Of a stretch of 64,000 nucleotides of DNA, positions 3,696 to 48,934 are shown piece after piece; position 1 is the stretch's first letter, and each line of letters opens with the position of its first letter. The notes below the pieces were generated by a model. It saw only the letters and a program-made list of their open reading frames with translations. It searched no databases and was not told where the DNA came from. The DNA lies in NCBI RefSeq assembly GCF_038025025.1, contig NW_027117342.1, positions 186,001-250,000 on the forward strand. The letters are read 5' to 3'. Both the position numbers and the translations under genes were made by a program. The stretch comes from Phyllosticta citribraziliensis (lineage: Eukaryota).

Positions 3696-6600
3696 TCAGT
3701 ACTTGACCTCGCAGGGCGTCGTCGAGCCGTCCGACGACTGCATGCTATACGGCGCCTATGACGACAACACGTTAACCAGCCGGACTACGATCCGCGCACC
3801 ACCTCTCCGGCACCACCACTCTCAACAGCAGGACGCGCATCTCGACCAGCAGAAGTAGCTGCTACGGCAATTGCAGCATTTGCATTCGCAGCACGATGCG
3901 CAGCTTTCGACGCCGGCTGCTCCTCCGCCTCCTCGACCCTCCCCGGACGGACCAGACTCACCAAAACCTTTTTCGCATTGCAGATGCGCCAGGCGAGATT
4001 GCGGACGCAGCCGTCGGCGCGCACGACCTCGGGGGCGAACTCGATGCCGAACATCTGCTGGACGGCGTAGACGACGCGGCGGGCAAACTTGCCGTCGCGC
4101 TCGACGAGGGCGCCGAAGCCGTCGGCCACGTCCTCGGGCGCGATCTGCGGGTCGCGGTCGAAGCAGTTGCGCACCACGGGCAGCAGCGCCTGCTCGACGG
4201 CGCCGCGGATCGATGCTGTGTCCGGGTCCAGCTCGGCGTCGTCGGCATCGAAGCGTGCGATGCGGATTTCGAACGGCAGCGAGATGGCCATGACGTTGTG
4301 CTTGCCGTCGTGGTGGTACCGGAATTCGAACACGCCCGTCGTCCACCACAGCTTGTCGCCCGCGAACTCCATTTCGCCGCACAGGCAGTCTTTGGCTTCG
4401 CCATCGGTGCGCGAGGCGCTGCTGACGAGCTGGTCGGACACCAGGATGCCTTGGTCGGCGCGCACCGAGTCGTAGGCGCCGGGCGTCGTGGCGATCCAGC
4501 GGCCTTGCGAGGACACGCGCGTCACCTCACGGGAAGCATTGTCTGAGACCATGTACAGACCGATCCAGTCCTTCTTGCTGTGGTTGAGCGGCGCGGTCCA
4601 CTTGACCTTGATGGGGGCGCCGTATTCGAACAGGAGCGTCTTGAAGCTACCGCTGCGGCGCGCCGGGGCACGAGCAGACTCTCCCTCACGGCCACTGCGG
4701 CGCTCCTGCTCGGCAAGGATCGACGAGGGCGTTCCCTCGACTTGGATGGAGTAGTCCTTGGGGTCGAGGCCGGCGAGGTCAGGCGCCACGCGCGTGATGC
4801 TGATGCGTGCGGGATACGACTTGAAGAGCGCCGTCGTGTCCTTGACAAACGTCTCGACGCCGGCGGCCAGCTTGGGCCGAGCAGCCTCGATGAACTCTTC
4901 GAAAAATTCAGCCGTGTCGCCCAAGACCCTATCCACGTTGCCCTGCCAGTGTCTAATGGGCGAAGGCAGCGAGCGCTTCAACGTCTTGGAGATGCCCGAG
5001 TCCTGCCTCAGGCTCTGACCGTACAGCCTCTGCATGTGGGGAACCTCGACGCACTGAATGTGCAGGAGCTGCAGGATGTGGCTCAGCAGGGCCACGAAGA
5101 AGATGGGCTTGTTCCACGTCAGGACGACGGCGCTCCAAATGCCGGCGAGACCGAGGAAGCGTTCGGGGTTGTTGAGGAAGCGGTAGATGCCACTGTAGTT
5201 TAGCTTGGGCGTCTGATCAAAAAAGAAATCTCCGTAGAACCAGCCAAACTCGCCCAGGGACTCGTAGACGCTGACCGAGGTCCAAATCTGCAACGCCATC
5301 AGCGCGGCTCCCAACACGTGTCTCAGCAGCGCCATTCCATATTCCCAATCGGGCGGCAGCGAGTACATTTTCCACGCGGCGGCAATGAAGCTGGCGTGGC
5401 ACATGGACGTGCTGAGATAGTACAAGCCCTTCCACTGCCTCCAGGCCTCCTCGGTGCTCTCTCCGTACTTGATAAAGTGGCGGGTCCAGCTCTTGCGGTT
5501 CGACTGCATGTTGAGGATGGTGCCGAGGCCGAAATTGTACCAAATGCGCCAGGCGACTGCGTGGGCGATGAAGAGGGCCTGGTAAAAGGGCGTGTTGGGC
5601 GTCAGGAGCGTAAAGGCAACCATGTACAGCTGAAAGAGCACCACCGAGAGATTGGTCAAGCGGTGCAGGTCCATGTTTTGCCATCCGAGCAGCTGGTGCA
5701 CGGGCGAAGGCTGCGCGGCCGAGGCCAACGGGGGAGCACCATTCACGTGACCGGCGTCGAGAAGGGGCGTCTTTGGGCGCGCGGCGTCGGCGTCGCCTGA
5801 AGTTAGCGTGCGCTTCTTCGGCGGCGGCGGCGGGTTGTACGTCTTTTCAATGTGCGGGTTTTCGACGAGGGCGAGGAAGGCGAATTGAGCTGCATGGGCA
5901 ATGATGGAGATGAACAGGACCTTGTAGCTGGCGGCCATGAGCGAGATGCCGTAGAAGCCGGCATAGCCGACCGAGTACATGGGGTGCGGCGCCATTTCGA
6001 AGACGCCGTCAAAGGTCAGCTCCTGGTCGATGAGGTAGAAGAAGTCACCCCAGTACCAGGCAAAGTCCTTGACGACGCGGTGGGCGTCGAGCTTGACCCA
6101 GAGGTTGAAGAGCACGAGGGCCACGCCGGCGGCCCAGCGGGCGAAGCCGACGGGCCAGGTCTCGCCTTCGGGAGGGCCTCCGCACGCGGTTGCAAAGAGG
6201 CAGTAGGAAACAAAGTCGCACATGAGGATCAAGTCAACGAGACGTCTAAAGACCAGCCACGTATTGTACTCTATCGGAGCCTCCTCAAACTTGTAGTCTT
6301 TTGGGATCTTGGTCTCCATCTCCTTTTTGAGCAGCTGGTAGAGGCGCGGGTAAGGGTTCCTGCCAGCATCGGGGTGCTCAAAGATGTGGGACTTTTTGGC
6401 CCAGGTCACCAGCCGCCTGTGCTCCGACTGAATCTGCAACAGATAACCGAGGCCGACATTGTAGCCGGCACGCCAAAAGAGGAAGACTACGGCAAAGGCT
6501 GGGATGCGCCAAGAGCGCGGGAGCAGGTAGTAGGCAAGCATGTGGCCAGCCAGGACGGCCAGGATGAGGGCGTCGGACAAGTTTTTTGGTTGCGTTGGGC

Positions 6601-7385: not shown

Positions 7386-8651
7386 CTTGCTCTTCTCTCT
7401 CTCCCTCGCTCAATGCATCCCCGTCGTAACTTTCGAATCAAACCCTTCTTCCCCGCCTCTGCCCCGCGCCTCTCCCGCCCGCCCAAACTAAATCACGCGA
7501 CGTGCCGCCCGCTACCCCGGATTTTTGACGTCGACCGTCTCCAAAAGCCGCCCATGGCGCCCTCGACACCTTGAACAAACAAAGACACGAGAAGAAAAGG
7601 ACAAACAACCTGACGTCCGGCTCATTCAGCAAAGCAAGCTGTCCAGAGCCCCGCATCTCCTTCTGCAGCCGGCCAAGTGGAGAGAAAGCGTCCGTTCGTG
7701 CCGCAGGCCTACCGTAGTAGTGTGGAGCTGCCGTGGGTGAGGTGGGTGCGCTCTTTTCAGGTCCTCCGCAACCAAACCCAAGGTCAGGTTCCCCCCGTCT
7801 GCCGCTCCGCCTCCCTCATGTACCTCTTGCCAAGATGCGCGGCAACATCATGCACGCTCTCTGCCCTCAACAGCCGGCATAAACTGCCAATTCTGCGCCT
7901 CTGCCGCTAGTTCTGCTGCTGCTGCGACATTTATCGACTCTTTTCCCTCGTCCCTCCACGCACAAGTGCCGCCGAAATCATAACCTTGCGCGCTTTGCAG
8001 GGTCCGCAGTCACCGACACCAAAGCATCGCCGTCCCGCGTACGAGAACGAGCAACGAAAAGCGTTGGGAGAGGCCGTCCGTCCGTCCGTCGTCGTTCCGC
8101 CGCACCGACACTGGACGCCCTCCCCCAGCAAAGCTCGGATCGCATCGATCGACTCCAGTCTCCAATAGACTAGGCACCATCTTTTTCTCTTCCGCTTCTC
8201 GCGCATGACCGTCCTATCAAATGTCGCCGGACTGCGGCGCGAAAGGAGCTTACCGGCCTCGAGCCGCCGTTATTACGGAATGCGTTTTGGCAATTGTTGA
8301 CCGTTGGTTTGTCTCGGGCGCGCGCGTGGCCTGCCTGCGGTGCCGGTGACCGTCTTGCATGTGATTTTGTCGGTGCGCGCCAATGACGTACGATCCTACG
8401 TCGAACAGCTTCAGTCTTCCATCGGACTCGACCGCAAAGAAGCCAAAGGAAAACACGTTGAGAAGTCTTTCAGGAATAGTCAATGCTCTCTCATTTCGCT
8501 AACCCCATTCTCTCAACCGTCTCCCCACGCTCTTCCCAACAACAGGACGCCTCAAGCAACACACGCACTCACTCATTACGCCCACATCAATCTCAGTCCG
8601 ACCCGCCCACGACAAGAACGAAAAAATTGACCCCTACCCCTACCCCTCCCC

Positions 8652-43155: not shown

Positions 43156-43858
43156 GACGGAGGGGAGGGAGGGAGATGGAATCTGTCCGTCGGTCAGTCG
43201 GGCTGGCACCTCGGTTACATTCAGATGCTTGGGATGGACGACGACTGCTGCTGCTGAGTGGTGTGGGCAGATAGACTACGTACAACAAGTGAGAATCACG
43301 TCGACGTAGACGAGACGTTTCAGAACACGGTCACAAAATACAGAAAAAAATAAACAAAGCGACATGTCTACTTCCCATCTCAGTCTTGACATCTATATCG
43401 CAAGGCAGGTAGACGGGTCGGCAAGGAGCGCTGGCAGGTTCTACGAAAGAGTAAAGAGGGAAGAAGACAACAGGCGGCGCAGACTAAATTCAAATTCCAT
43501 CCCACCTGATTAGACACAATTTACTAGATTAGTCCACAAAGGTTGACGCAGTAAAAAAAATAAAATAAAGAAAAGGAGCAAAAAAATAAAAGGAATTCGA
43601 GGAAAGGGAAAGCAGCCACCCAGCCAGTCAATTAAGTTGGTCAATCAAGCAGCCAGCCGATCCGGGAACTTTTTCTAATAGCAAGTAGGTAGGTAGGTAG
43701 GTAAGTACCTAACCCATCATCCACCCTCCTATCCTTCCGCCTCCTACCCTTCTTCCATCTTCCACCCCCTCCTGTCCTACCCTTCATAAATCTTCCATCC
43801 GCCCATCCTCCACCCTCCCTTCTTCCTCCTTACAAACACGACAGTACCCCTGCTGCAC

Positions 43859-46800
43859 CTACCAGTCCTTCTTAATGTCAAACGACCACTCAAACTTGAG
43901 GTGCGTCTGGTTGTCGTCGTCGACGAACTTGGACACGGCGTTGTAGTGACCGCGCGTCATCATGCCCGAGGGGGCGACTTCGGGCTCGACTGTCCATGGC
44001 AAGCAGGGTCGCGTTAGCCACCGATCCATTCCTCTACCACGCGCGAAAAGAGGGGGAAGGGAAAGGGAGCCCCCAAGCCCAACGGCAGGGCATGATGGGA
44101 CCAGCAGACTCACACTTCTTCTCATAGATGGGCTTATCCGTCGTGTTGGGCCCGTAGCTGCCAATCATCTCCTGCGTCTTCTGGCTGACGCCCATGCGCT
44201 TGATGACCTGCAGGTACTTGAGGCCCGACAGGATGTGGTGCTGCACCTTGAACGTCACCTTCATGCGGAACTGCGCCCCCTCCTTGATCGTGAACGGCTT
44301 CTCCTTGAGGTGGTCCACGGCGCCCGGCGCAGACAGGTCGATGACGATGTCCGGGCGACCCTCGACCTGGTCGTGTGCGGCGGCTGCTTAGCAAAATGCG
44401 TTTTGGGACGAGTGATGGTGGTGGTGGTGGTGGTGCCGGCTTGCTTACCTCGAGACCCAGTGAGAGGATGATGACTGTGCGAGGGTCGTTGGGGTCGGAG
44501 ATGGTGTTGCCCGAGCCAATGCCCAGGCTCTCCTTCCACTTGCGGAGAGACTCGTCATTCTGATCTACAATCAATCACATTAGCAACTCCTGACGACGAC
44601 CTGCATGTGCTTTGCTGCCTGCGTTGAAGTGAGTGAGAGACAGTCAAAAAGGAATGTCATTGATGGAAAGCTGGCGCGTAGCAAGAGAGCTTTTTAAAGC
44701 AAAAAAGTCACTCCAAACTCCAACGCCAGCAGACCACAAATGACCCCCAAAACTAATTCGCATCGCTCAAATGTGATTTGATTCAGTGCCTGCTGGAAAC
44801 CCTCTTCTGCTTCACTCTGTTGCAAGAGCAGACGAGGGATGACTTTGAGAGACCAAGTCTTGCCTCCTCTCGAGCCAGAGGCAAAAGAATGCAGCGGTAT
44901 TTTGACAGCGTCATTCAATGCTCGACCGCTTCGACTTTCCCCTTCGCATGAGAAGCTCCGAGACTGGGGACTGTCGACGATGTCAAAGTATGTCAAGTAG
45001 CTGTGAACTCCACCGCGATGTCTGGGAAAGTGACGGCTCCTTGACGCTGTCGGCCTGCACATGTTTCTGGGCCAGTCCAGTTGCTTCTGAGCCGGGAATC
45101 TCATCGACTGGTCCGGCCTCGAAACAGTCGTTTTGTTGGCTCGCAAAAAGCAATCGCTGCTGCGCATCCTCGAGTACAGGGAGTATGCAGTCGACAGAAT
45201 GTCGCATCACGTCCAATTCCCGCCGTTTGAGCTCGCCGTATGTCTGACGAAGCTTGTCGGTGTGGTAAACGAACAATTGAGTCAGATGTTGCAATGACAC
45301 GTGTGGCATGCCATCCGAGGAATCCGAGTCGATGGAGCGATTTGAAAGCATTGAAACGACAGGGATTGAATGGGTCTCAAACTGTGGGGGCTCCTTTTCT
45401 GACTTGGACGAACAAGAGTCCCTCCCATTCTGTGGCGATTCAGAGGCCGAAGCATGGGAGTTGCAGCCGAACTTCTTTTGACAGCTGGACGGCTCGTCGT
45501 CCATGGGCGGAAATACAGAAACTCGCAGCGGAGAGCTGTGCTGTGGTGCATGAGACGTCCTCAAAGCATGGCGGCAGCCTTGGTTCGCCTGATATCGATG
45601 CCACGGTCTGTGAAGTGGCGTCGACAGAGTGTGCTCGGAAGAGTAGGACAGTGCTGCCGATTGCCGTTTGGTTGTCCCGCCACCAGTGTTGGAGGAATCA
45701 GGCGCCGGTGGTCTTGTACTCGAGCCATTTCCCCCAGAGGGACCTGGTGGAGGTCCACCAGATGAATCGTCGTGCGGTGGTTGGTAATTGGTCTGATCAA
45801 CCGAGTCGGACGAGTCAGAATCAGAGCTAGAGCTTGAGCCTGACGAGTTTTTACTGGACTCTTCATTGTCGGCACGGCTAGCATCATCTTGGGCCTCTCG
45901 TTGCGCCTCCAGCGGCGACTGGTCATCAACCCGTGATTGTGTCGTCCGTTGGGAAGCTTGAGTATTCTCATGGTCCTCTCTGGGCGCTGCAGTCTCGCCA
46001 GGGTCAGAGGAGCGTCGGAGAACATCGGTCACGGTTTGCGATTCTGTCGAGGGCTTCTTCTTGGACAATTTCCCCCGAAATATTTCAAACGCCTTCCCCA
46101 GGCTGCTCTCTTTGAGCCGCTTGGCCAACTCCTTTCTCCGGGCATTGCGTTCGCATTGAATCCAATCTTGCCGGCGTTTCTTGGCTTCCAAGATTTCCAC
46201 GTGCCGTCTTGAGCGCTCTTTCTGACGTGACTTTCTTATTCCTTGGTCAACCATCTTGAAGAATCGTGAGGACAAACGCCGTTGCTCTTGCCTTTGGCGG
46301 AATGCATTGTAAGAACCAGAAATCGTCGAAACGTGTCTGCCGAATTTGGTATCTGCCAAACGCTGTCTGCGTCGAGCCGCTCGCAGACGGCGCTCTTGCC
46401 TCCTGTTTTGCTTTTCCATGGCTTTGATGGCTCTGCCCCGTTGTCTCTCTCTTTCCAGAGGAAGTCTTTCTCTGGCCTCTTGCAACATCCGCTCTTGTTC
46501 CTCGACAGCGTTGAGCTGAATTTTGATGCGCTCTCGCTTAATCGTGGCCGCCAGTGCAGCTAATCTCTGGTCTAATGTGTTGTTTATGATGATATCGGAA
46601 TCCCTTGAGGCACGAGGATCAAAGCTAAATTCAGCGTCCGAAGGACTGGAAGGGTCATGCTGAGCAGCTGGCTCTGGTGCATGAGAGTTGAGTTGATCCT
46701 TCCGGCGGATTGCCAGAGATCTGAGCATGCGAATTTTCCGGCCATTGGCACTGCTGAGCGCCCTATGTTGAGACCCTTGGCCCTCAGAAGGGTTGGCAGG

Positions 46801-48446
46801 TGCTGTTGGGGTCTCGGCAACATGGTTGATGTCCCCTCTGCCCTCTTCACCAAAGCCGTGCGGCAGTGGCAAGTCGGGTGTGCGGACAGAGAAGATATTG
46901 AGTTTGAGAAGGTGCCCAGATGGAGGTGGAAAGAAGGTTAGCTTGGACGGTTTCTCGGCCTGGCTGGGGTTGGAGAGCCTTGGTCTTTGGTAGACTGGAT
47001 CGCTGCGACGATTTTCCTGGCTCGATTGGGTGCCTCCGCGTCGAATGGCCTCCAAGTCGGTGCTTGAGAGCTGGGGAAACGTATTGGTGTTTGGACGGTC
47101 TGGACGGTCTGGAGCTCTCGTGTTGACACGACGAAGATGGAATGGCCAGTGTCGTCTGGGGTTGAGACTTCTCCCTGTTTGATAGACCGGATCGCTGGGG
47201 TCGGTCTCCTGGCACGACAGGGGGCCTCTACGTCGAATGGCATCAAGGTCGCGTCTCGAGAATTGGGGGAACGCATCGACGGTTGAGGTATTGTGGGCTC
47301 CCGTATCGGCTGGGCGAAGGTCGAATGACCGATGTCCTCTTGGGTGGCGTTGTCGGCGTACCTGATCTGCTCCCTCGCCAGCTGGTTGGTCGGGAACAGG
47401 ACGATGACGCGGTAACCTGAGATGGCGGCGCAAGGAATTGAAGCCCCGGCTATGGTACGGTTGATCCGATACGCCCGAGGCGTTGTCGTGCTGGACTCCA
47501 GTCCGGGGTCTGGCGGAGCGCGATCGGAAAAGGAACGATGGTCGCCAGGAGCGTCGGTGGGGCCTTTGGCGCGAATTGGAACGAGAGCGGCCTGACGATG
47601 GCATTTTACCGCAGCGTTTGATGGGGTACAATGAGGAAATGACTTGTAAAATGGTCCAAAAGACTCAGAGGTCCTTCTGTTCGGCTGTCAAGCTATGGTG
47701 GCTTTTTCTTGATCAAACGAGCGTCACAGCAAGAGGCCGTGGAGGCGGTGGTATTTGATGTGAATACTGAATGTCGATGTCGATAATGACAGTTGGAGAA
47801 ACAGGGTGGCGATGGAATGTTGCTGTCAAGAAGAAGAAGCAGATGAAGATGGAGGAATCGAGCCATGGTGAAAGCGAGCGAGTAGCCACGGTGGATTACA
47901 AGGCGACTTCTCTTTTTGGAGAGGCAGTCATGAGCAGGAGGACCGAGATTGGCGGGCATTTTGGACCCATTGGCTCAGCGAGAAAGCGCATAGGCAGCCA
48001 GTGAGGCCCGTGTGTTTTGGCAGGAGCTCGTCAGGGGTAGCCATATTTTTGGAGGTTGTTGTTTTTCTTTTCTTTTTCGTAGTACCAGGTGCAGTGATGA
48101 GTTGCGGCTCAACGGCATGACGTGCATGTTGGCGGCTGCAGAGAGCGGGCAAGTTGTTTTGGCGGGGCCAGGCACCTCGTGTGGCCGAGGCAAGCTGTCC
48201 CTCGCTCTGGATGACTTGGCATGGCTACATGCACCAGGACGGCCATGTCGGTCGAATGGCACAGCCAAACATGGTGACGAGCAGCGGCAGATGAATTGAT
48301 GCAGGCAAGCAAAGCACATGGACGGCAGAGGGGGATGGGGGAGGCGACTCACCCAGCTGCTGGTACTCGTCGATGGTCTTCTTCTCGCCGACCTTGAAGC
48401 CCTCGGTCTGCTCGGGGGTGAGCTCGTCTTCGTGGCCGTCAACCAT
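43859..48446 (-). CDS. RDI1: Rho GDP-dissociation inhibitor; exons 48446-48353, 44564-44449, 44366-44114, 43989-43859 (intron 1 = 3,788 nt)
   Basis: Exon 1 MVDGHEDELTPEQTEGFKVGEKKTIDEYQQL (phase 1, GTGAGT donor) joins DQNDESLRKWKESLG; also KPFTIKEG, GSYGPN, APSGMMTRGHY, FEWSFDIKKDW. Confidence 0.92.
44604..44622. repeat. Inverted repeat arm near the RDI1 intron 1 branch point; pairs with 48301-48320
   Basis: catgtgctttgctgcctgc versus the reverse complement of 48301-48320, catgtgctttgcttgcctgc. Confidence 0.9.
44983..47604 (-). CDS. Orphan ~873-aa ORF nested on the same strand in RDI1 intron 1 (Arg-rich, coiled coil, Ser-rich)
   Basis: 2.6-kb stop-free frame; first ATG at 47604 (aaaATGcca); charged coiled-coil segment and an internal duplication; no recognised domain. 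Confidence 0.65.
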   Translation of the reverse strand: MPSSGRSRSNSRQRPHRRSWRPSFLFRSRSARPRTGVQHDNASGVSDQPYHSRGFNSLRRHLRLPRHRPVPDQPAGEGADQVRRQRHPRGHRSFDLRPADTGAHNTSTVDAFPQFSRRDLDAIRRRGPLSCQETDPSDPVYQTGRSLNPRRHWPFHLRRVNTRAPDRPDRPNTNTFPQLSSTDLEAIRRGGTQSSQENRRSDPVYQRPRLSNPSQAEKPSKLTFFPPPSGHLLKLNIFSVRTPDLPLPHGFGEEGRGDINHVAETPTAPANPSEGQGSQHRALSSANGRKIRMLRSLAIRRKDQLNSHAPEPAAQHDPSSPSDAEFSFDPRASRDSDIIINNTLDQRLAALAATIKRERIKIQLNAVEEQERMLQEARERLPLERERQRGRAIKAMEKQNRRQERRLRAARRRQRLADTKFGRHVSTISGSYNAFRQRQEQRRLSSRFFKMVDQGIRKSRQKERSRRHVEILEAKKRRQDWIQCERNARRKELAKRLKESSLGKAFEIFRGKLSKKKPSTESQTVTDVLRRSSDPGETAAPREDHENTQASQRTTQSRVDDQSPLEAQREAQDDASRADNEESSKNSSGSSSSSDSDSSDSVDQTNYQPPHDDSSGGPPPGPSGGNGSSTRPPAPDSSNTGGGTTKRQSAALSYSSEHTLSTPLHRPWHRYQANQGCRHALRTSHAPQHSSPLRVSVFPPMDDEPSSCQKKFGCNSHASASESPQNGRDSCSSKSEKEPPQFETHSIPVVSMLSNRSIDSDSSDGMPHVSLQHLTQLFVYHTDKLRQTYGELKRRELDVMRHSVDCILPVLEDAQQRLLFASQQNDCFEAGPVDEIPGSEATGLAQKHVQADSVKEPSLSQTSRWSSQLLDIL
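48301..48320. repeat. Inverted repeat arm 32 nt inside the RDI1 intron 1 donor; pairs with 44604-44622
   Basis: gcaggcaagcaaagcacatg; 19 bp of complementarity with a 1-nt bulge. Confidence 0.9.
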
Positions 48447-48934
48447 GGCTGCGCTGTGGGGTGATGGACGAGTGGGAGTGAGCGAGGGAGTGGGAGGGAT
48501 GGTGTTGTGGTAGAACAGAGTAAGGTACGGTAGGTGTTGTGAGTAGAGGATGGGAGACCCTTTTGGAACACCAGAGTCTCTCTCTCCCCCTCCCCCTCTG
48601 GCCTCTGGCCTGGCTCTGCCTCTGCCTCTGGGCCCCGCCTGGTCTGTGCGGGGCCTCCCCTGGCTGCAGTGACCGCTGACCGCCAAAACACTCGTCAAGC
48701 ACGTGCATGGCCCGATCGGGGTCAGTACAGGTACTCGCGTCGCCATCGCTGATGTGGTCTTGTGGATGCTGGTAACTACTGGACTCGTTGTAAAGCAGTA
48801 AACGGGACTGATTCCAAGTCGACGAGTGCCTGGATGACAGCTCTAGCTCGTACTGTAGCTTACGCCAGACCCGGCCAGCCTCTCTGTCTCCCTGTCGAGA
48901 AGCACCCAAAACCTTCCCGTCGTCCTCAACCCAA

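Follow-up and report, generated by a model that had tools for sequence, protein, structure and literature searches.

A giant first intron in a RhoGDI gene

By reading a 64,000-nt stretch of the genome of the Dothideomycete Phyllosticta citribraziliensis (assembly GCF_038025025.1, contig NW_027117342.1, positions 186,001 to 250,000 of the forward strand; hereafter the window), we found a gene for a Rho GDP-dissociation inhibitor (RhoGDI) whose first intron is 3788 nt long, is spliced, and holds a long open reading frame (ORF). Close to its two ends the intron carries a pair of complementary arms, which are predicted to pair with each other and to loop out the ORF between them. The initial annotation of the window had described the giant intron, the nested ORF and the inverted repeat; beyond that description, we found that the ORF shares the strand of its host gene and that the host is RhoGDI. 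The features of the locus are as follows, given in window coordinates and in the order of the transcript, with the basis of each in brackets.

48353..48446, minus strand: coding part of RhoGDI exon 1, 31 codons plus 1 nt, ATG at 48446-48444 (translation; RNA-derived contigs stop or are joined at 48353)
44565..48352, minus strand: RhoGDI intron 1, 3788 nt, with GUGAGU donor (G at 48352) and UAG acceptor (contig joint from 44564 to 48353)
48301..48320, minus strand: 5' arm of the stem, 20 nt with one bulged U, intron positions 33-52 (sequence, repeat search, folding)
44983..47604, minus strand (the same strand as RhoGDI): nested ORF P0001, 873 aa, stop codon included (ORF, homologues and cover by RNA-derived contigs)
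44604..44622, minus strand: 3' arm of the stem, 19 nt, intron positions 3731-3749 (sequence, repeat search, folding)
44579..44584, minus strand: putative branch-site motif GCUAAU, intron positions 3769-3774 (sequence reading)
44449..44564, minus strand: RhoGDI exon 2 (contig pieces and joints)
44367..44448, minus strand: RhoGDI intron 2, 82 nt (contig pieces 44295-44364 and 44447-44533 on one record; GT ambiguous by 2 nt)
44114..44366, minus strand: RhoGDI exon 3 (sequence and contigs)
43990..44113, minus strand: RhoGDI intron 3, 124 nt (joint from 43989 to 44114 in sequencing runs X1 and X6)
43859..43989, minus strand: RhoGDI exon 4, including the stop codon (sequence reading)

Contigs from four public sequencing runs were placed on positions 43800-48700. 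In contigs of two of these, namely X1 (organism A) and X6 (organism C), which come from two studies, position 44564 is joined to 48353. The joint skips 3788 nt, and the ends of the skipped sequence read CT..AC on the plus strand, i.e. GT..AG on the gene strand. Contigs of X1 and X6 also span the joints of RhoGDI introns 2 and 3. None of the runs found was recorded as RNA, and the sole ground for treating these two as RNA-derived is the presence of the three canonical splice joints in their contigs. At the intron-1 joint the shorter side is 29 and 30 letters long, which is under our 31-letter rule and is the maximum that a contig of a 31-mer graph can reach past a branch; the match is exact at the canonical boundary in two organisms. 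With exons 1 and 2 joined at the predicted GT..AG in RNA-derived contigs of two organisms, the giant intron is real and spliced. The word depth of the spliced contigs was 21069 in X1 and 1930 in X6, as compared to 1019 and 44 for the intron-body contigs, i.e. a ratio of about 20-40; contig depth is a poor measure of the level of splicing, and it is the direction of the difference which makes clear that most of the RNA is spliced at intron 1. Another run, X7, covered 8 of 30 bins at low depth and was not used.

The host gene, on the minus strand, is identified as RhoGDI by its similarity to other fungal genes. A query with exon 1 retrieved proteins named Rho GDP-dissociation inhibitor, one of them with a precomputed PF02115 match, and exons 3 and 4 show 72-88% nucleotide identity to metagenome loci that were fetched with RhoGDI exon 1. 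The exon 2 piece alone (35 aa) had no match in a Pfam search. Exon 1 is identical over all 31 aa (100%) to exon 1 of a P. capitalensis gene model. The GCUAAU motif of intron 1 is similar to the GCUAAG / GCUAAC of introns 2 and 3, and on the basis of this motif the branch A is presumed to be position 44580, 15 nt upstream of the acceptor. A (GTG)8 microsatellite lies within intron 2, at 44412-44435, and reads were skipped there in the placement of contigs.

The nested ORF looks like a real gene. Its homologues include one in P. citrichinensis (89% by BLASTP, 90% in the full-length alignment), one in a Logan contig (70% by BLASTP, 72% in the alignment) and one in P. paracitricarpa (47% in the full-length alignment). 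These three relatives came from a word-seeded search, and all four proteins begin with MPxS.RSRSNS and keep many columns invariant from end to end. Pfam gave no family at E up to 0.1 and the ESM Atlas no usable match. A profile search of 1.84 billion representatives returned only four proteins with E values of 0.001 or below, and the query alignment already contained two of them; none of three profile matches that were looked up carries a family name. In a scan of metagenomes with the nested-protein alignment, 0 of 553 pattern matches were confirmed. From these comparisons, the family is judged to evolve fast, to occur in Phyllosticta-type sequences alone and to have been preserved as a long ORF, and its protein is not a transposase by any test run. 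One protein from a Theobroma cacao assembly (P0123) matches the nested-protein profile over about 40 residues (E = 5e-8), which could be low-complexity similarity or a fungal sequence within the plant assembly. In X1, the intron-body contig stops at 44747, about 236 nt past the stop of the nested ORF and upstream of the 3' arm, and in the bin 44620-44783 the summed word depth is down from 1019 to 230. The contig end could be the poly(A) site of the nested gene, with the limit that contigs cannot show RNA ends.

Complementary arms near both ends of the intron

The initial annotation reported a long-range inverted repeat of 19 bp with one bulge, and this proved exact to the base. The arms form a duplex of 19 bp, with a bulged U at intron position 46 and an energy of -33.0 kcal/mol, and an independent repeat search found their 13-nt perfect core. 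On re-measurement, the 5' arm begins 32 nt from the first intron base, just as was claimed, which places its onset 26 nt past GUGAGU. From the end of the 3' arm it is 19 nt to the first base of GCUAAU (where about 20 nt had been given), 23 nt to the presumed branch A and 39 nt to exon 2, the last figure being the same as before. The helix excludes a loop of 3678 nt with the whole nested ORF in it, and leaves 32 + 39 = 71 intron nt outside, as compared to the earlier estimates of about 3.68 kb and about 70 unpaired nt.

The minimum free energy (MFE) fold of the whole 3788-nt intron, at -1234.2 kcal/mol, contains exactly the 19 arm pairs. The ensemble free energy is -1300.59 kcal/mol when the RNA folds freely and -1300.10 kcal/mol when the 19 pairs are enforced, which gives the complete helix an equilibrium probability of 0.46; thermodynamically, it is the dominant arrangement of the arms. 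The first 100 nt of the intron have no better complementary partner elsewhere in the intron than the 3' arm. The 300-nt neighbourhoods of the arms are no more stable than shuffled sequences (z = -0.09 and -0.43).

As a control for this geometry, a 3788-nt span was placed at 8602 positions across the window, and its first 100 nt were compared to its last 100 nt by local-alignment score. A score of at least 14 was obtained in 11 placements, 10 of which reach 16, and all 11 contain the same arm pair. No other placement of the same geometry among the 8602 scores 14, as against 16 for the arms. The duplex energy of the intron ends, which had been put forward in the initial annotation as a check, came to -51.3 kcal/mol for the 100-nt ends in an RNAduplex-type calculation. 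This value was equalled by 1283 of 3000 natural placements and by 7 of 1000 mononucleotide shuffles; as a statistic, the energy was therefore rejected for its failure to discriminate and was replaced by the local-alignment score, which does discriminate. The 13-mer core occurs at two sites in the window, both of them the arms, where 0.09 are expected, and two or more sites were found in 0 of 100 shuffles.

Other copies of the arm motif, which the initial annotation had proposed to look for, were sought in the 64-kb window, and none were found besides the two arms. It had also been pointed out that a common simple repeat would undo the idea. A tandem-repeat search found none at the arms, and the arms are not simple repeats. 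Rfam gave 0 matches at E up to 1 for positions 43800-48800.

Conservation in Phyllosticta and the same intron in other fungi

In P. citriasiana, a distant congener, a protein model (P0005) consists of exon 1 read through into the intron, and aligns to the window by tblastn with E = 5.8e-23. At the same offset at which the window, read in the frame of exon 1, encodes HVLCLP, this model has HMLCLP. Only 3 of 11 residues are identical in the linker between exon 1 and the arm, and past the arm the sequences diverge again, with a four-residue insertion. Counted as minimum base changes, P. citriasiana differs from the window at 1 of 18 positions in the arm, at 11 of 33 in the preceding linker and at 6 of 6 in the two codons that follow, these being lower bounds because third codon positions are invisible in the protein. 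By this count, the 5' arm is a conserved island amid a diverged intron. Across the 3' arm there is no ORF long enough.

Exon 1 has been annotated as a separate mini-gene in both P. citriasiana (73 aa) and P. capitalensis (98 aa), as would be expected if exon 2 lies kilobases off. The P. capitalensis model (P0006) combines an exon 1 identical to that of the window with an unrelated tail of 67 aa, for which the window holds no match; it may be a mis-model, or it may represent exon 1 spliced to an exon inside the intron of that species.

The giant-intron arrangement is old, as the intron body and the nested ORF are also found in contigs of organism C and of a further run, X4 (organism B). In X6, a 3831-nt contig starts in exon 1 (48382), crosses the nested ORF and stops at 44606, with 247 other letters and 120 gap letters over 3671 aligned bases. 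X4 contains the intron body in two or three divergent forms, and one of these spans the start of the ORF, the 5' arm and exon 1. The X4 versions of the locus have about 6% and about 15% other letters, in addition to a low-depth version with several deletions near 48037-48303, which suggests mixed species or haplotypes. In an arrangement of this age, a 19-bp complement that is not under selection would be expected to have decayed.

Out of 80 metagenome loci fetched with RhoGDI exon 1, 48 contain both exons and 10 exon 1 only, and exon 1 was unrecognised in the other 22. Intron 1 lies at the same codon in 48 of the 48 loci with both exons and is 52-659 nt long, in many cases 140-365 nt; the intron position is thus old, and the intron itself normally short to medium in length. 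The 48 loci provided 38 distinct introns, in which neither arm has a real match (the best scores being 8 of 20 with the 5' arm and 10 with the 3' arm). With the motif absent from these, the arms would have arisen with or after the insertion, and both they and the nested protein family appear to be found only in the Phyllosticta lineage. An ancient origin of the 5' arm within RhoGDI intron 1 was also considered, as 'HVL'/'CL' is encoded at a similar offset in several fungi, yet it was rejected for want of any real match in the DNA of the 38 introns. One locus, L052, appears to have no RhoGDI intron 1. Another fungus (L004:1-1440) has a RhoGDI exon 1 at 93% amino-acid identity and a canonical donor, followed by at least 1354 nt without exon 2. 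In this stretch, an ORF on the same strand runs off the end of the contig (481-1440, at least 320 aa); it showed no homology to the nested-protein profile in hhalign (probability 0.3%). Perhaps L004 represents another lineage in which RhoGDI intron 1 holds an ORF the size of a gene.

A possible RNA bridge and its alternatives

In filamentous fungi, introns are recognised across the intron and are typically shorter than about 100 nt. A well-spliced 3.8-kb intron that contains a complete same-strand gene is an extreme test of this intron-definition rule. We find it fairly probable that the arms form a zipper-type RNA bridge, which would let a spliceosome working by intron definition remove the 3.8-kb intron together with the gene inside it. 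The polymerase would pass the nested gene and make the 3' arm, which would then pair with the 5' arm. The resulting 19-bp helix would loop out 3678 nt, including the whole nested gene, and bring the donor to within about 51-55 linker nt of the branch site, a spacing that would be near the intron size usual here (82 and 124 nt for the other RhoGDI introns). The initial annotation had proposed that such a bridge makes the nested gene tolerable. The splicing of the intron, the pairing of the arms in the MFE fold, with the equilibrium probability given above, the spacing, as reckoned to the presumed branch site, and the conservation of the 5' arm are all in line with that proposal, whereas pairing of the arms in vivo, and a gain in splicing efficiency from it, are what the model predicts.

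Zipper stems are common in the long introns of yeast and are poorly conserved in sequence, and modelling of the spliceosome sets minimum distances of 10 nt and 20 nt and a total linker of 42-85 nt (PMC12350175). In RhoGDI intron 1, the 19 bp lie between the donor and the branch motif, at intron positions 33-52 and 3731-3749, with the motif at 3769-3774. On the donor side the helix starts 32 nt from the first intron base, and on the branch side, where the branch point is taken from the motif, it stops 19 nt short of the motif and 23 nt short of the presumed branch A. Together, 32 + 19 to 23 = 51-55 nt of linker fall within the modelled range. On the donor side and in the total linker the stem resembles the zipper stems of Saccharomyces cerevisiae (RPS17B, RPL7B and others); that of RPL7B is described as needed for efficient splicing (PMC12311795). 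Long introns of S. cerevisiae are mostly 400-500 nt (PMC12350175), as compared to the 3678 nt spanned here. Furthermore, unlike in the yeast zippers, the loop holds a complete same-strand protein-coding gene and the host is a filamentous Dothideomycete. The definition of a zipper stem in PMC12350175 includes in vivo support, a helix confidence of at least 70% and an effect on splicing; unlike the yeast examples, the RhoGDI stem is at present a predicted one. The principle of the zipper stem is thus known, and by this comparison a kilobase span with a nested gene is likely to be a new variant of it.

Several points weigh against the RNA bridge. Equilibrium folding of a naked RNA takes no account of co-transcriptional kinetics, of bound proteins or of the 3.7 kb that lie between the syntheses of the two arms, and local MFE folds give both arms weak alternative partners in exon sequence. 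The branch site, from which part of the spacing is reckoned, is assigned by motif. The comparative evidence covers the 5' arm and not its pairing with the 3' arm. In P. citriasiana, this arm has a certain G-to-A change at arm position 4, which could equally be a broken pair, and the 4-codon insertion splits off the last two arm bases. One of the X4 contigs diverges straight after the donor hexamer, with no arm in the 30 letters displayed. Nor do zipper stems of yeast always promote splicing; zipper variants of RPL28 lowered the fraction of retained intron (PMC12350175).

A chance match between the arms is very improbable. The repeat was spotted post hoc in 64 kb, and the 5-kb region contains 22 inverted pairs of at least 12 nt; against this stand the score of 16, with nothing else at 14 among the 8602 placements, the two copies of a core expected 0.09 times, and the conservation of the 5' arm in a distant congener. 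It is less far-fetched, but still unlikely, that the arms are a footprint without present function, left when the nested gene was inserted into a short intron, either as terminal inverted repeats (TIRs) of a DNA element or as an inverted duplication from break repair. The arms do bracket the whole inserted gene, and removal of everything between them would leave an intron of 71-91 nt, at an ancient position where the intron is usually short (52-659 nt in the 48 loci) and where the 38 distinct introns hold no arm motif (best 8 and 10 of 20). There is, however, no target-site duplication next to the arms, whose flanks GACGACGACCTG and GACGGCAGAGGG share no direct repeat. The inverted similarity also ends at the arm borders, the score being 30 on the inner side (matched by 110 of 300 shuffles) and 20 on the outer side (matched by 98 of 300). 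The window holds no further copies, and a Pfam search of the nested ORF (E up to 0.1) gave neither a transposase nor any other family. These results speak against a DNA transposon with TIRs, which the initial annotation had named as one of the findings that would overturn its proposal; copies were sought within the 64 kb. Moreover, the arrangement is old and yet the complement is intact, and in P. citriasiana the flanks of the 5' arm have changed far more than the arm itself. An insertion footprint can, as an origin, coexist with a present function of the RNA, and all the observations would fit a footprint on which selection acted at a later time.

The arms might instead be conserved for a role other than pairing, as two inverted protein-binding sites in DNA or RNA that control the nested gene or RhoGDI, which we regard as doubtful. 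Each arm contains a CANNTG-type box, the two arms flank the whole nested transcription unit, and the conserved island in P. citriasiana indicates constraint, the cause of which it does not give. Binding sites would, on the other hand, not need 19 matched bases, and exact reverse complementarity together with the spacing from donor and branch site suits an RNA helix better. No strand-changing joints occur at the arms in the contigs of the four runs, i.e. there is no sign of DNA inversion, which is weak evidence in the same direction.

The introns that host nested genes in animals are long and are handled by exon definition. In Drosophila and mammals, as in RhoGDI, a complete gene lies within the intron of its host and raises the question of transcriptional interference (PMC3814207, PMC5174743 and PMC11694760). 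A partial search of the literature yielded no paper on a same-strand nested gene in a stem-closed giant intron of a filamentous fungus. Teleost introns with (AC)n/(GT)n repeats at their ends are likewise said to need secondary structure between the intron ends for correct splicing; their arms are simple dinucleotide repeats that form a genome-wide class (PMC4691745), whereas those of RhoGDI are a unique 19-mer at one locus. Inverted repeats are also predicted to join the intron ends in the internally symmetrical (stw)introns of Hypoxylaceae and the introner-like elements of Capnodiales. These repeats measure 45-55 nt, form the extreme ends of the intron and belong to multi-copy families at new intron positions (PMC8469720), whereas the RhoGDI arms are 19 nt long, are set back from the ends by 32 and 39 nt, have no further copies in the window and occupy an intron position common to 48 of 48 loci. 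An assignment of the arms to such elements was rejected, as their length, their placement, the old intron position and the lack of extension all contradict it.

If the helix does enable splicing, it would extend the zipper principle from a few hundred nt in budding yeast to kilobases in another fungal class. The two 19-mers would then also be a simple, mutable handle on how the spliceosome measures intron length, as well as on the tolerance of nested genes and the co-regulation of host and nested gene.

A more elaborate version, which we hold to be improbable, makes the stem the deciding element of a same-strand switch between two genes. A transcript from the RhoGDI promoter that ends at the nested poly(A) site, upstream of the 3' arm, would give an unspliced RNA with the nested ORF. 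Read-through of another ~130 nt would add the 3' arm, which would zip to the 5' arm, so that the nested gene is spliced out and RhoGDI mRNA is made. If such a switch existed, a conserved 19-bp helix would control how much of each of two proteins a single transcription unit produces, and it would illustrate how splicing by intron definition can cope with an intron the size of a gene. The end of the X1 contig at 44747, along with the drop in depth before the 3' arm, is one hint in its favor.

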